In this document: in pieces, positions 14,727-53,543 of the stretch
Layout of the letters: every line of letters starts with the position of its first letter
Numbering within the stretch: position 1 is the first letter of the stretch
DNA from: a virus
Lineage: Duplodnaviria > Caudoviricetes
IMG/VR virus record: IMGVR_UViG_3300023174_005575
Location: 1 to 57,983 of that record
Length of the DNA stretch: 57,983 bases
Direction: 5' to 3' (one strand)
Position numbers and translations under genes: made by a program
Notes under the pieces: model-generated
Told to the model about the DNA's origin: nothing
The model's input: the letters and a program-made list of their open reading frames with translations, nothing else
Databases searched by the model: none

Positions 14727-15144
14727 GAAATTAGAAAAGTTTTTGGAAGAAGTCAATGACATAATGCCATTGACTATACTGCCAGATGGCAGTGTGGCCT
14801 ACAAGAACTATGTTATTAAAAAGAACAAAGATGCCAGCTGGACATTGAGTAGAATACAGAATCAAAGCAAAGTATTCATAGACGACTTTAACTTAAAAAG
14901 TAGCGCATTGCTGGCAGCTAACTATCATAGAACAAATAGAATTGATCTATTAATTGAAACTAAAATACTAGACGAGCACTATTGGGCCAATTACAACGAT
15001 CATTTGACTTTTAAAGAGCTATATAAGAAAACCAAAGACCTAGTCAAAAGAGATTTATACTTATGGCGAGGCGAATTGACTAGAGATCGAGCAGACTACT
15101 ATCGTGATAAAATAAGCAATGCGTTTGCTACGTCATTTAGATAA
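14704..15144 (+). CDS. Hypothetical protein
   Basis: 146-aa ORF in the co-directional run. Confidence 0.7.
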   Translation: MTIKQVAKKLEKFLEEVNDIMPLTILPDGSVAYKNYVIKKNKDASWTLSRIQNQSKVFIDDFNLKSSALLAANYHRTNRIDLLIETKILDEHYWANYNDHLTFKELYKKTKDLVKRDLYLWRGELTRDRADYYRDKISNAFATSFR

Positions 15145-47828: not shown

Positions 47829-47836
47829 CATAAATA

Positions 47837-47915
47837 GTTTTGTGCATCGCCCGGTTGGGGTTGCATAAAATGGGCGTGTTGCCCAAACCGTTCTTGCTTA
47901 AAAAGGAGAAAAAAC
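47837..47915 (+). ncRNA. ROSE-like RNA thermometer in the hsp20 5' UTR
   Basis: Three hairpins; the last (TTCTTGCTT-AAA-AAGGAGAA, 47891-47910) pairs U(U/C)GCU with the SD, leaving a bulged G. Confidence 0.65.
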
Positions 47916-48353
47916 ATGAACGCAATGACTCGTTTTGACACCCAAGCTCTAAACAGAGCACTTGTTGGATTTGATCGTATGTTTGACACATTCGAGACTA
48001 GATTCGGCAATCAACTCAGTTCAAACTATCCCCCATATAATGTAGTCAAAAAAGATGACGATCATTATGCTATTGAAGTAGCAGTCGCCGGCTTTAAAAA
48101 GAACGAAATTACTGTGGAAGTGGATGGTGATCAACTCACAATCAAAGGACAGCGTAACAAAGACGAAGCTGATGAAGTGCAGTATATGCATCGCGGACTC
48201 AGTGCTCGTGATTTTGTTCGCCAGTTTACTTTGGCTGAGTATATGTTGGTTCGGGGTGCTTCAATTCAAGATGGCGTGATTCGTGTTGATTTGGAACGAG
48301 TAGTTCCGGATCATATGAAACCACGCTTGATTGACATTGTAGAAATTAAGTAA
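47916..48353 (+). CDS. Small heat-shock protein (Hsp20/IbpA family)
   Basis: GFDRMF, NYPPYN, IEVAVAGF, YMHRGLS.R.F.R.F.L, P..MKPR.I.I. Confidence 0.95.
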   Translation: MNAMTRFDTQALNRALVGFDRMFDTFETRFGNQLSSNYPPYNVVKKDDDHYAIEVAVAGFKKNEITVEVDGDQLTIKGQRNKDEADEVQYMHRGLSARDFVRQFTLAEYMLVRGASIQDGVIRVDLERVVPDHMKPRLIDIVEIK

Positions 48354-48409: not shown

Positions 48410-48733
48410 ATGAACATGTCCGATGATGTTAAACTAGAAGATCGAGTTCAACTAGACGAAAAGATTAAACAAAAAATCATTGAACCTAAAAAATGGAAAG
48501 TGATTTTTTTAAATGATAATCATACTCCCATGGAGTTTGTTGTTACTGTATTGATTGAAATTTATAAACACACAATGGAAGTTGCACAAGAACTTACACT
48601 TCAAATTCACGACACCGGTAGTGGTGTTGCAGGTACATATACATTCGAGATAGCGGAAATTAAAGCAGTAGAAACTACTAACTTGGCAAGGGCACAAGGC
48701 TTTCCGCTACAAATTAAACTTGAAGAGGAATAA
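48410..48733 (+). CDS. clpS: ATP-dependent Clp protease adaptor ClpS
   Basis: WKVIFLNDNHTPMEFVV, IHDTGSGVAG.Y..EIAE.K, FPL...LE. Confidence 0.93.
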   Translation: MNMSDDVKLEDRVQLDEKIKQKIIEPKKWKVIFLNDNHTPMEFVVTVLIEIYKHTMEVAQELTLQIHDTGSGVAGTYTFEIAEIKAVETTNLARAQGFPLQIKLEEE

Positions 48734-49282
48734 ATGAGTTTACGAGAGATCACTAAGGATCTGCACCACGAAGCAGAAACTACAAAATTTGCCAAACTAC
48801 TATTAAGTGGCAAAATTAGCAAAGAAGATTACGCAAATTATCTATATCAAATGTTACTGGTCTATGGCCCAATTGAGTTTGGCAATAGAATGGTTGGTAA
48901 CATGGACAACCTAAAAGGCATTGAAAGATTGCCTGCTATCTATAAAGATTTTATGGAATTAGCTGGACCAGATCATAAGTATGTTTGGCTACCAGAAAGC
49001 ATTGCTTACCACAACTATCTAGTTGACTTGATCAATGATGTTGATCGTAGACATTTGATTAAGGCACATTTATACTGCCGTCATATGGGCGACCTTAATG
49101 GTGGATTGATTATTAAGAAGCAAGTTGCTGCTATCAGCAGTGGACATTTCTATGAATTTGATAATGCTGCTGAACTTAAAGTGGCTATTCGTGCAGAACT
49201 AACAGATGACTTGGGCGACGAAGCTCGTGTGGCATTTGAATGGGCCATTAGAATGATGAAGGATTTGTATAATGGTGAGTAA
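48734..49282 (+). CDS. Heme oxygenase
   Basis: LREIT..LH..AE (proximal His), AHLYCRHMGDLNGG, FYEF, EARVAF. Confidence 0.9.
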   Translation: MSLREITKDLHHEAETTKFAKLLLSGKISKEDYANYLYQMLLVYGPIEFGNRMVGNMDNLKGIERLPAIYKDFMELAGPDHKYVWLPESIAYHNYLVDLINDVDRRHLIKAHLYCRHMGDLNGGLIIKKQVAAISSGHFYEFDNAAELKVAIRAELTDDLGDEARVAFEWAIRMMKDLYNGE

Positions 49283-49955
49283 AGTTTGGGATTCACTTAT
49301 TTCCGTACAGAACCTTCTTGAGGAAAGTTTTGCTAGAACTGGCGTTGAGCAGTTTGAAAAAGGCATGGAGCGGTTCAATCAACCTGGTTGGGTTAATCGT
49401 GTATGGAGTAGTGAGTCCTATCGTCGTGCTCACGTTGACGTAGTAGACGCTAGAGAGAAAAAGGGCTTATGGATGATGCATTGTTGTGTGTTTCCACATA
49501 CGCATAATCCAGCCCCAATCTTTGGCTTTGACGTCATTGCAGGAAAAAACAAGATCACTGGCTGTTTCTATGATTACAGCCCAACCAGTGATGACGTTCA
49601 TCCTATGACAGAGTGGTTCCAGCATGAAGTTAGTAAAATGGCATGGCACAAGCCTAGAGCATTGCCAGAGTGGGCACAGCGTATTTTCAGTCCCAGTATG
49701 GTAGCAGCAGGCAATGTGCAGGATGAAGAAGAGTTGGATCAAATAGTAGCCATGGCTCGTACTGGTGTTGACCATTACCTTGCTACGGTAGGCGAAACCA
49801 ATCATACTGCCACGGACACCAGTGATAGACAGAATTATTACGCACAGAATCAAAAACAAAACCCACATACTCCCAAAGTTATGGTTAGTTTGGGCCTAAG
49901 TGAGGATGATGTGCGAGTGTTTATTCAGGAGTGCCTCTTCCCAGAAATTGCATAA
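49272..49955 (+). CDS. Ferredoxin-dependent bilin reductase (PcyA/PcyX type)
   Basis: YRRAHVD, MMHCCVFP....PIFGFD, D.SP, RALPEWA..IFS, QN.Y..NQKQNPHT; overlaps the heme oxygenase gene. Confidence 0.88.
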   Translation: MVSKVWDSLISVQNLLEESFARTGVEQFEKGMERFNQPGWVNRVWSSESYRRAHVDVVDAREKKGLWMMHCCVFPHTHNPAPIFGFDVIAGKNKITGCFYDYSPTSDDVHPMTEWFQHEVSKMAWHKPRALPEWAQRIFSPSMVAAGNVQDEEELDQIVAMARTGVDHYLATVGETNHTATDTSDRQNYYAQNQKQNPHTPKVMVSLGLSEDDVRVFIQECLFPEIA

Positions 49956-51674: not shown

Positions 51675-52283
51675 GTGATTGATTTGAACTATCAAGAATT
51701 ATTTTTAGACATATACAAGACAAACTTTTGGAGAGACGCAGAATCTAGAAGTGGTACTGGCTCCAATTTATCAAGCACTCGTAAATTGGTTGAAGAACTT
51801 CCAGCTTTATTTAGAATGCTGGAAGTTACCAGTATTTTAGATATTCCCTGTGGTGATTACTATTGGATGCGTACTGTGCCTATGCAGGGCATACAATACA
51901 TTGGCGCTGATTTAGTGCCAGAAATTATTGCGGATGATAGACTAAAATATCCCAATGTAAGTTTTATAGAATTAGATATACTATCCGACAAGCTACCTAG
52001 TGTGGATCTTATCATAGTGAGGGATTGCCTAGTGCATTTTCCCGATGAAGATGTTTTTCGAGCATTGAATAATGTATATGAAAGTGCCAGTAAATATTTT
52101 TTATCTACTACATTTCCAAATCATTCCAATAAAAAAGATATTGAAATGGGTGATTGGCGACCACTTAATCTAGAAGATGCTCCTTTTAATTTGCCCAAGC
52201 CCTTGGCCATTATTAACGAAGGCCTAATAGGCGATTGTAACGATAAAAGTATGGCCGTTTGGAGTGTTGATCAACTAGGATAA
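51675..52283 (+). CDS. Class I SAM-dependent methyltransferase
   Basis: SGTGS, ILDIPCGDYYW, YIGADLV, DLIIVRDCLVH, RPLNL..APF. Confidence 0.82.
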   Translation: MIDLNYQELFLDIYKTNFWRDAESRSGTGSNLSSTRKLVEELPALFRMLEVTSILDIPCGDYYWMRTVPMQGIQYIGADLVPEIIADDRLKYPNVSFIELDILSDKLPSVDLIIVRDCLVHFPDEDVFRALNNVYESASKYFLSTTFPNHSNKKDIEMGDWRPLNLEDAPFNLPKPLAIINEGLIGDCNDKSMAVWSVDQLG

Positions 52284-52810
52284 AACCTAGTTACATTAAA
52301 CCAAACTTCACTATTTGGTTCACAACTGTCAGTACACATTAGTTCAACTGTATCAGTTTGACAGGTACGTTCAAAAGCTTCTATTACTCGTTGGCTATAA
52401 ATCCAAACTCTATCTGGACAAATATTCAACGCAATTTCTACATTTAAAGAATTTACTGAAATCTCATAAACCTGTATAGCGTGTACGTTATCATCCAAAC
52501 TGAAATCTCTAGCATATGAATCAGCATGTAACCAAGTTATAGGTTCATCAGGCAACACGGCTTCACTGGCTTTTAGTCCTAAAAACACTACATCGTTGAA
52601 TCCTGCTTTTACTAGTCTATCTTTGGTCTTTGGACCTATGCAATATATTTTACGATCTAATAGAGAACCACTATAATGTTCTATGGCATTATAGTGTGTA
52701 ATTAACACAGAAGAAGTAAATACTGGGGCATGTTGTATGCCCTTGCTTTCCAAACAAGGTATCCAAATGTTTTTATTTGGATCGATCATTTGGGTGTATA
52801 TTTGTCTCAT
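52271..52810 (-). CDS. Divergent, shortened uroporphyrinogen-III synthase (HemD)-like protein
   Basis: LITHYNAI, KIYCIGPKTKDRLVKAGF (HemD-type (A/C)(V/I)GxxT..L...G), IQVYE, IYS; only 179 aa. Confidence 0.5.
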   Translation of the reverse strand: MRQIYTQMIDPNKNIWIPCLESKGIQHAPVFTSSVLITHYNAIEHYSGSLLDRKIYCIGPKTKDRLVKAGFNDVVFLGLKASEAVLPDEPITWLHADSYARDFSLDDNVHAIQVYEISVNSLNVEIALNICPDRVWIYSQRVIEAFERTCQTDTVELMCTDSCEPNSEVWFNVTRFYPS

Positions 52811-52821
52811 AATGATAAAAG

Positions 52822-52909
52822 TAGTCCCTATTTACAATAACTGGGTAGCGAATCCGTTATTGAGGCTTAGGGATCAAGCCACATAACCCAAACGGTCCTA
52901 GGGTATGTT
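52822..52909 (-). ncRNA. Putative structured (pseudoknotted) 5' leader RNA, family unrecognised
   Basis: Downstream of TAAATA (52915-52920, -): three stems, with the loop UCCCU complementary to AGGGA near the hemD-like start. Confidence 0.5.
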
Positions 52910-52988
52910 AGCAATATTTACCAAAATATTAGCATTTTTCAAACTAAGACTATATAATATGCAAACATTCTTTACAAAGGAGAAATTT

Positions 52989-53543
52989 ATGAAGAAAATC
53001 GTTACTATCGCAGCTCTAATGGCAGCTACCACTTTGGCTAGTGCTGCTAGCATCACCATCGAAGGCCAAGATCAACAAGGTCATCGTGGTGCTCGTGATA
53101 GCACAAACTATTCACTCAGCGTCAAGTATCCAGTCAATAAAACTTTTGCTGCTGATATTGGTTTCACTGCTTATCAACAAGATGGTACCAAAGCATTGAG
53201 CAACAGGCTCGAAGCTGGTGTCACTGGCACTATGCCAGTTGGTCCAGTAAGCTTATATGCTCGTGTTGCAGTAGGCGAGAAATTCAGCAATGGTGCTGAT
53301 TTTGAGTACTACAGTGTTGAGCCAGGCGTTGTATACAATTTTACCGACAAACTAAGTGGTAAAGTAGGCTATCGTTTCCGTAATGGATTTGGCAACAATG
53401 GCAATTTTGACACTACTCACACTGCTCGTGCTGGTGTTAGCTATGCCTTGACCAAGCAGGACACAGTTGGTGTTCGTTATGACCAAGTTCGTGGTGACAG
53501 CTTTAACCACAGCTTTAACTTTGCATATACTCGTTCATTCTGA
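52989..53543 (+). CDS. Outer-membrane beta-barrel protein (porin-like); start revised to 52989
   Basis: AAGGAG RBS, signal peptide (ASA/A), alternating amphipathic strands, C-terminal beta-signal YTRSF. Confidence 0.82.
   Translation: MKKIVTIAALMAATTLASAASITIEGQDQQGHRGARDSTNYSLSVKYPVNKTFAADIGFTAYQQDGTKALSNRLEAGVTGTMPVGPVSLYARVAVGEKFSNGADFEYYSVEPGVVYNFTDKLSGKVGYRFRNGFGNNGNFDTTHTARAGVSYALTKQDTVGVRYDQVRGDSFNHSFNFAYTRSF

Follow-up and report, generated by a model that had tools for sequence, protein, structure and literature searches.

The pseudoknot in the leader of gene 32 of phage T4 is an autogenous translational operator, the rpsO pseudoknot is a comparable operator, and the put RNAs of phage HK022 modify RNA polymerase. 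To our knowledge, phage-specific structured leader RNAs are few and almost none of them is understood.

From IMG/VR intergenic regions, 8,495 candidate structured-RNA models have been compiled (Fremin, Bhatt and Kyrpides 2023; PMC10690425); according to the available text of that study, the T4 gene 32 leader pseudoknot has no Rfam model. A heme-catabolism cassette, hemO-pcyA/X, is known from aquatic phages (PMC11480375), and the available text of this second study mentions neither hemD nor riboswitch (0 occurrences each).

The locus described here belongs to a virus record in IMG/VR that is 57,983 bases long (the whole stretch analysed, in the following termed the window), the completeness of which was judged to be 17%. 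The window encodes phage structural genes, tail fibre genes and a ribonucleotide reductase, and the DNA runs that bear the stretch are labelled as lake water or freshwater metagenomes. Upstream of a hemD-like gene it harbours a pseudoknotted element which shares with the T4 gene 32 leader its probable place at the 5' end of a phage mRNA, an H-type pseudoknot lying ahead of the ribosome-binding site and, possibly, transcription from a T4-late-like promoter motif. It differs from that leader by two extra hairpins (P1 and P3), by a fold only 4-6 nt from the Shine-Dalgarno sequence and by a downstream protein that is secreted and not nucleic-acid-binding. With pseudoknot riboswitches that control translation (preQ1-II/III, SAM-II/SAM-V and fluoride) it has in common a compact H-type leader pseudoknot, invariant unpaired nucleotides and an A-rich loop beside the second stem; in contrast to these, it matches none of their Rfam models, its Shine-Dalgarno sequence lies outside the conserved fold and its gene context is uninformative. 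As far as the available text of PMC10690425 describes them, the candidates of that study derive from the same data source and are likewise conserved intergenic covarying motifs, many of them upstream of genes. The element differs from both cases treated in the main text (GP20 and GP32 leaders) but may already be among the 8,495 models as an unnamed candidate. No description of the element was found in the available literature text.

Organization of the leader region

The element is located in a gap of 178 bases between the hemD-like ORF (179 aa; 52271-52810, minus strand), which is the next gene after the leader in the window, and a divergent gene for a porin-like outer-membrane beta-barrel (52989-53543, plus strand; Pfam Porin_4, 1.9e-7). 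A sigma-70-like promoter of the latter (52929-52958, plus strand; TTAGCA-18-TATAAT, 10/12) bounds the element on its 5' side. The conserved RNA core, supported by BLAST, alignment and a covariance model (117.9 bits for the window copy), comprises 86 nt on the minus strand (52825-52910; TAACAT ... TAGGGA) and is preceded, across four variable bases, by the promoter-like motif GTAAATA (52915-52921, minus strand). All further parts are on the same strand. Hairpin P1 (52881-52908; ACATACCC/GGGTTATGT) consists of ten pairs with one bulged U and the loop GGACCGU, and is directly abutted by hairpin P2 (52864-52880; GGCTT/AAGCC, loop GATCCCT). Within the P2 loop, TCCCT (52869-52873) forms the 5' strand of the pseudoknot and pairs with AGGGA (52825-52829), the 3' strand, which reads GGGG(G) in relatives and is there followed by a separate AGGAG. 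Hairpin P3 (52835-52862; CAATAAC/GTTATTG) has seven plus two pairs, one bulge and the nearly invariant loop AYUCGCUAC; it is joined to the pseudoknot 3' strand by UAAAU (52830-52834; alignment columns 87-91, invariant). The remaining 14 nt up to the start codon (52811-52824) are variable, differing between the window, L012 and L013-15, and contain no Shine-Dalgarno sequence.

The resulting topology is that of a classical H-type pseudoknot with P2 as stem 1 and 1-2 nt crossing to stem 2, 0 nt between the 5' strand of stem 2 and the 3' strand of P2, and a long third loop that contains P3 and terminates in the invariant UAAAU. P1 and P2 have no linker between them, and the linkers of the hairpins measure 0-1 nt. 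The leader text, the three hairpins and the complementarity between P2 loop and tail are all present as quoted in the first-pass annotation for the minus strand of 52811-52920. Two of its accompanying remarks apply in part. With a GC fraction of 0.40 the element is GC-richer than the AT-rich promoter flank (52900-52999, 0.24) but not notably so than the window (0.39). The tail is literally the only Shine-Dalgarno-like sequence before the start in the window; the 14 bases between the end of GGGA and the ATG, however, exceed the spacing of a usual Shine-Dalgarno sequence.

Relatives and distribution

A search of a database of 5.8 billion proteins with the 179-aa protein yielded 17 relatives at E <= 0.001 among 39 scored candidates, and scans with the alignment of these relatives led to five viral and 16 metagenomic loci. 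The element was detected in 19 of these 21 hemD-like loci with 80-98% identity (BLAST of the 115-base leader), the two loci without a match being L019 and the doubtful, partial L027. L019 possesses an unrelated leader of 66 bases (best E = 0.42 with the covariance model, filters off). In 15 of the 19 element-bearing loci, the hemD-like protein is 41-48% identical to that of the window.

Between clades, the 86-nt core retains 83-93% identity, versus 51-73% for the coding sequence of a small protein encoded next to it (see below) and 58-84% for that of the hemD-like protein. Window and L012 differ at 1 of 86 core positions, while 466 of 540 positions of their hemD-like coding sequences are identical and 52 of 180 third codon positions have changed. 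As the core exceeds its neighbours in identity by far and the clades are separated by long branches, constraint on the element is much stronger than on its surroundings. A recent transfer of the whole module does not explain the conservation of the core.

According to the covariance model built from the alignment, the element is present once in the window and once in G001, a complete record of 399,796 bases. The phages collected in GenBank yielded neither a DNA nor a protein match. When 185,579 bacterial and archaeal species were scanned with two exact patterns, 0 and 3 matches resulted, none fitting the covariance model; these three, together with two extra viral pattern matches that also fail the model, were read as chance. 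From IMG/VR, pattern scans contributed nothing further except L030 and copies truncated at their ends. The element belongs to large freshwater phages (jumbo phages) and provides a handle on late gene control in this uncultured phage group.

Covariation analysis and fold

Taken by itself, the window copy does not fold beyond chance: its minimum free energy (MFE) of -26.5 kcal/mol corresponds to z = -1.89, 7 of 200 shuffles fold equally well, and the opposite strand reaches z = -1.90. The RNA structure is judged real on account of the comparison of 15 homologous copies, not of the single-sequence fold. For this comparison, the four helices proposed in the first-pass annotation were imposed on an alignment of 15 distinct full-length sequences (107 columns, 73 of them invariant). 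Standard pairs occupy 97.9% of the 435 pair cells. Both sides have changed in a compensatory manner in six of the 29 pairs, one in P2, two in the pseudoknot and three in P3. When the partners were shifted by 1-3 columns, 31-53% of cells were paired and 0-2 pairs were compensatory. In a control with 500 column shuffles, 0 attained the observed percentage paired, 0 the number of compensatory cells and 0 the covariation score, whereas 35 attained the simple tally of covarying pairs and 499 that of further pair types.

Eight of the ten P1 pairs never vary, one alternates between A-U and G-U, and the remaining pair is U-U in the window clade but U-A in the other sequences; with 0 compensatory changes, P1 is supported by conservation rather than covariation. 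The closing pair of P2 is U-A in seven sequences, C-G in seven and U-G in one, and all P2 cells are paired. In the pseudoknot, two of five pairs are compensatory (U-A to C-G), and P3 displays three such pairs (A-U/G-C/G-U, U-A/C-G and C-G/A-U/G-U) with 99.3% of its cells paired. RNAalifold, which cannot draw pseudoknots, recovers P1, P3 and the loop-tail helix unaided. About 19 core columns are variable; 12 of them constitute the six covarying pairs, and three more represent compatible one-sided changes. On the minus strand 13 cells are G-U, as against four A-C cells which would be G-U on the plus strand, and this bias shows that the RNA is read from the minus strand of the window.

Since the copies stem from about three clades, which stand on long branches in the protein tree, the number of independent compensatory events is modest; reading alignment and tree together, at least two occurred at each of the pairs 45/53, 61/84 and 65/80. 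The homologues thus bear out the pseudoknotted RNA that had been proposed from one sequence, all 15 distinct copies keeping the four helices and 6/29 pairs being compensatory, and we regard it as highly probable that the element is a real structured RNA.

The statement that it matches no riboswitch consensus was confirmed by Rfam 15, which gave no match at the gathering score for the whole window and none even at E <= 10 for 52700-53050 on both strands. Models of self-cleaving ribozymes in Rfam (twister, pistol, hatchet, hammerhead, HDV-like) were likewise without a match, and ARAGORN detected no tRNA or tmRNA genes in the window. The element is a structured RNA family absent from Rfam 15. It displays the conserved, structured, aptamer-like fold with covariation that is expected of a riboswitch; the traits of autoregulation of the T4 gene 32 type are lacking, as the downstream protein bears a signal peptide and belongs to no nucleic-acid-binding family.

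Genes adjacent to the element

The gene following the element codes for a protein of 102-106 aa with a signal peptide in 17 of the 19 element-bearing loci. These proteins form a single family, characterized by a signal peptide at the N-terminus and a pair of conserved cysteines. Neither a Pfam or PHROG family nor a PDB fold (E <= 0.001) was matched, and their Atlas matches are viral hypothetical proteins only. In the distant clades, hemD-like gene, element and 102-aa ORF follow each other on one strand throughout, and the stop codon of the hemD-like gene falls within the first bases of the conserved core. The order in the close relatives L013-L015 is porin gene (divergent), element, 106-aa ORF and then the hemD-like gene, which overlaps the stop of that ORF. 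Only in the window and in L012 is the small-protein gene absent and the element directly adjacent to the hemD-like gene; no member of the small-protein family was found elsewhere in the window (a record 17% complete). The designation as leader of the hemD-like gene therefore describes the position in the window correctly but not the family, for which the small secreted-protein gene is the usual successor (17/19 loci). A leader specific for hemD is contradicted by the listing of downstream genes, which places the hemD-like gene upstream of the element in the distant clades.

Judging from these gene orders, the most parsimonious reading is that the element is the ancestral leader of the small secreted-protein gene, which would have been lost in the lineage of window and L012. 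The hemD-like gene of the window would have come under the control of the leader because the original partner gene was deleted, which would mean that a leader can pass to a different gene once this has happened. A comparison of 52811-52824 of the window with 2171-2504 of L013 shows that the start of the hemD-like gene, coupled to the stop of the small-protein gene by an ATGA overlap in L013-L015, is preceded in the window by an AU-rich linker without Shine-Dalgarno sequence. Since the loss, the element has been retained at 85/86 identity (window versus L012), a retention that also fits a function independent of the downstream gene. The possibility that the element is the decayed 3' end of the 106-aa ORF, i.e. 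a pseudogene remnant, was rejected, since an intact element lies upstream of that ORF in L013.

The small-protein gene family as a whole does not require the element: besides L019, no element match was obtained in L051-L062, 12 small-protein loci of more distant relationship for which DNA upstream of the gene was available. The search for distant loci covered 16 of 20 loci, the other four being contigs already known to hold the element; L043, where the small-protein locus begins at the contig end, is uninformative in this respect. L059 (1440-1500) and L061 carry an insert of 50 nt between GATAAATAA and the ribosome-binding site. Two segments of this insert, GGCTCTTCC and GGATGGTTCGCTACC, are similar to the 5' strand of P2 and the loop of P3; the best match of L059 to the covariance model (E = 1.8, filters off) is not significant, and the insert may be a decayed remnant of the element or due to chance.

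The hemD-like proteins of the distant clades possess a C-terminal tail ending in D/N-K-Y-x (e.g., L021, 3040-3058), which is absent from the window clade. As its codons are those of ATAAATA and the start of the core, the tail looks like an overlap of the reading frame with promoter and leader. On the other side of the element, the porin-like gene and its sigma-70-like promoter recur with 81-86% nucleotide identity in five other viral contigs (L002-L006), in each of which a different gene lies upstream of the porin promoter, so that the border of the element coincides with a mosaic junction. Depending on the locus, homology of the porin relatives to the window stops between 52917 and 52998, just outside the element; L004, which has no element, is 95% identical from 52917 onwards.

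Putative signals for transcription and translation

All 15 sequences contain TAAATA, four variable bases and then the invariant TAACAT. The extended motif is ATAAATA in the ten distant-clade sequences and GTAAATA in the window clade. ATAAATA, which behaves like a promoter motif, is similar to the consensus of T4 late promoters. Of the 15 ATAAATA sites in the window, 13 have an ORF of 60 aa or more beginning within the next 70 nt on the same strand, compared with 218/559 for permuted heptamers (pooled over 20 heptamers); one exception lies before an ORF of 53 aa, the other 79 nt before an Hsp20 gene. Virion structural genes are among those preceded by the motif. Examples of sites are at 15141, 17190, 22910, 31787, 45189 and 49952 on the plus strand and at 1343 and 8516 on the minus strand. 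The hexamer TAAATA as such is not enriched in the window (60 seen versus about 90 expected). Taking the ATAAATA-type motif as promoter, the 5' end of the RNA would lie at about 52908-52911, at the foot of P1. A second GTAAATA inside the element (52829-52835) could start a shorter transcript.

In every copy that extends far enough, the start codon lies 15-22 nt past the fold. Among the aligned copies, no conserved terminator was found between fold and start codon, and the U-run after the fold is not conserved. In the ten distant-clade sequences, an AGGAG is situated between G-run and ATG, 4-6 nt from the former and 6-8 nt from the latter, so that the G-run in these sequences is a structural strand and not the Shine-Dalgarno sequence. 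The window clade offers no better Shine-Dalgarno candidate than the G-run, L013-15 having only a weak AGAGAA. Masking of the Shine-Dalgarno sequence by the P2 loop, as suggested by the first-pass annotation, is consequently not the conserved logic of the element, for in the ten distant-clade sequences it is the G-run that pairs with the loop, separate from AGGAG. No other conserved helix masks the ribosome-binding site across the 15 sequences either. In the MFE structures of four of the 15, the P2 5' strand (GGCUC) pairs with the AGGAG region and P2 is open; this pairing shows no compensatory change and is absent from the window clade. According to these predicted folds, it would make the leader a two-state switch.

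Three lake metatranscriptome runs (X18, X19, X20) were compared with the stretch. One contig of 243 nt from X18 covers 52740-52982 with 0 differences at a depth of 2.3; it extends past the predicted start site and could reflect DNA carry-over. Contigs from X19 and X20 represent only the porin-like gene of related phages (52988-53446, plus strand), to which they correspond with an identity of about 90-95%; their first position, 52988, follows closely on the predicted porin promoter.

Tetrapyrrole-related proteins near the element

The 179-aa hemD-like protein remains below the Pfam HEM4 cut-off (17.4 bits versus 27.5, 31 residues covered); its L021 homologue scores 18.2 bits. For the AF2 (AlphaFold) model of the protein (pLDDT 84.8), the top 11 PDB matches listed are all uroporphyrinogen-III synthases (E 1.2e-5 to 3.8e-3, eight of them at E <= 0.001; TM 0.36-0.64; identity 11-15%), the matched HemD structures being about 70 residues longer. 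From this model, the protein is predicted to have a HemD-like two-domain fold.

Genes for a heme oxygenase (48734-49282, plus strand; PF01126, 6.1e-21) and a ferredoxin-dependent bilin reductase (49272-49955, plus strand; PF05996, 7.8e-17) form a pair 2-3 kb from the element in the window and in two distant-clade records, G001 and G002. This pair constitutes the likeness to the hemO-pcyA/X cassette (PMC11480375), whose tie to the leader RNA is one of neighbourhood only. In the window, the cassette sits in a freshwater jumbo-phage fragment, and a gene for a ClpS adaptor (48410-48733, plus strand) directly precedes heme oxygenase and bilin reductase, the three lying in a row. A tetrapyrrole ligand is a possible lead derived from this gene neighbourhood.

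Proposed function and alternatives

On balance, the element is probably a cis-acting 5' leader pseudoknot of a phage mRNA, representing a family uncatalogued in Rfam. The earlier view of a cis-regulatory RNA agrees with this as regards the conserved pseudoknotted RNA on the minus strand and its leader position, but not as regards any specificity for the hemD-like gene. In the model we propose, the mRNA would start a few bases past the ATAAATA-type promoter motif; P1 would stack directly on P2, and the P2 loop would pair with the G-rich tail, giving an H-type pseudoknot that holds P3. This fold, which is compact and stops 4-6 nt short of the ribosome-binding site, would be recognised by a small-molecule or protein effector, and the leader would act in cis on the next gene, most likely on translation initiation or mRNA stability. 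The ancestral next gene would be that of the small secreted protein, the loss of which in the window would have fused the leader to the hemD-like gene. The element is single-copy, conserved far beyond its neighbours and found in a fixed setting beside tetrapyrrole-catabolism genes in jumbo phages; with its 86 nt, the covarying pseudoknot is a compact and directly testable candidate for a new class of riboswitch or protein operator.

A riboswitch, in which the pseudoknot would be the aptamer for a small molecule (possibly heme- or bilin-related) and binding would alter how accessible the next gene's ribosome-binding site is, is possible though unlikely. The invariant unpaired GGACCGU, AYUCGCUAC and UAAAU beside covarying stems, the leader position, the proximity of HemD-fold protein, heme oxygenase and bilin reductase in both clades, and the nested fold of similar energy that joins GGCUC with the AGGAG region in 4/15 sequences are consistent with it; however, an expression platform conserved in all clades is missing, the next gene codes for a secreted protein that matches no Pfam, PHROG or PDB fold, and the family is narrow. 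That the element is, more specifically, a new riboswitch class of large freshwater phages sensing heme, biliverdin, phycobilin or another tetrapyrrole-derived metabolite is a distinctly improbable proposition. If it held, such a riboswitch would time the late expression of the secreted protein or, in the window, of the HemD-fold protein, and the proteins encoded nearby (heme oxygenase, bilin reductase and HemD-fold protein) would produce or use up its ligand. We know of no earlier natural RNA sensor of heme or a linear tetrapyrrole, so that an element of this kind would be the first, and a phage-specific riboswitch.

Recognition by a phage or host RNA-binding protein, with the leader serving as translational operator or mRNA stabiliser in the manner of the T4 gene 32 and rpsO pseudoknots, is likewise conceivable but not likely. 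P1 is invariant in both strands and in its loop beyond the needs of pairing, the pseudoknot ends 4-6 nt before AGGAG, and GGA motifs are shared by the P1 loop, the top of P3 and the Shine-Dalgarno sequence, all of which would suit a bound protein. No partner protein was identified, however, and autoregulation is unlikely because the downstream protein carries a signal peptide.

It is doubtful that the element is an independent small RNA, trans-acting or a decoy, released from a late transcript. The 85/86 identity between window and L012 despite loss of the ancestral downstream gene would be expected of such an RNA, and the invariant loops could serve as seed or binding regions, but the fold is followed by neither a terminator nor a conserved 3' end, and the element always stands directly before a start codon on the same strand.

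A role in transcription or processing, either as a promoter-proximal RNA that modifies RNA polymerase, as put RNAs do, or as a self-cleaving ribozyme, is very unlikely. The RNA would begin right past the promoter-like motif with hairpins stacked on linkers of 0-1 nt, and its compact, pseudoknotted form includes unpaired bases that are invariant. Against this stand the lack of any Rfam ribozyme match even at E <= 10, the lack of a downstream terminator that would need read-through, and the order of helices (hairpin, hairpin with loop-tail pairing, hairpin), which is unlike the HDV-like fold, a double pseudoknot with a different order of helix strands.

That a DNA site (operator, replication or packaging signal) rather than an RNA is conserved is suggested by the divergent promoter region that surrounds the element in the window clade, but is extremely improbable in view of the compensatory changes in three helices, the 13 G-U cells tolerated on one strand only and the position between two co-directional genes, with no divergent promoter, in the distant clades.

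A further leader in the window was noted at the Hsp20 gene (47916-48353, plus strand; Pfam HSP20, 1.2e-19), which is preceded by an ATAAATA site and then a leader of 79 nt (site and leader together 47830-47915, plus strand). This leader has no Rfam match, and its fold reaches z = -1.1; it contains UUGCU shortly upstream of AAGGAG, an arrangement that recalls ROSE-type RNA thermometers.
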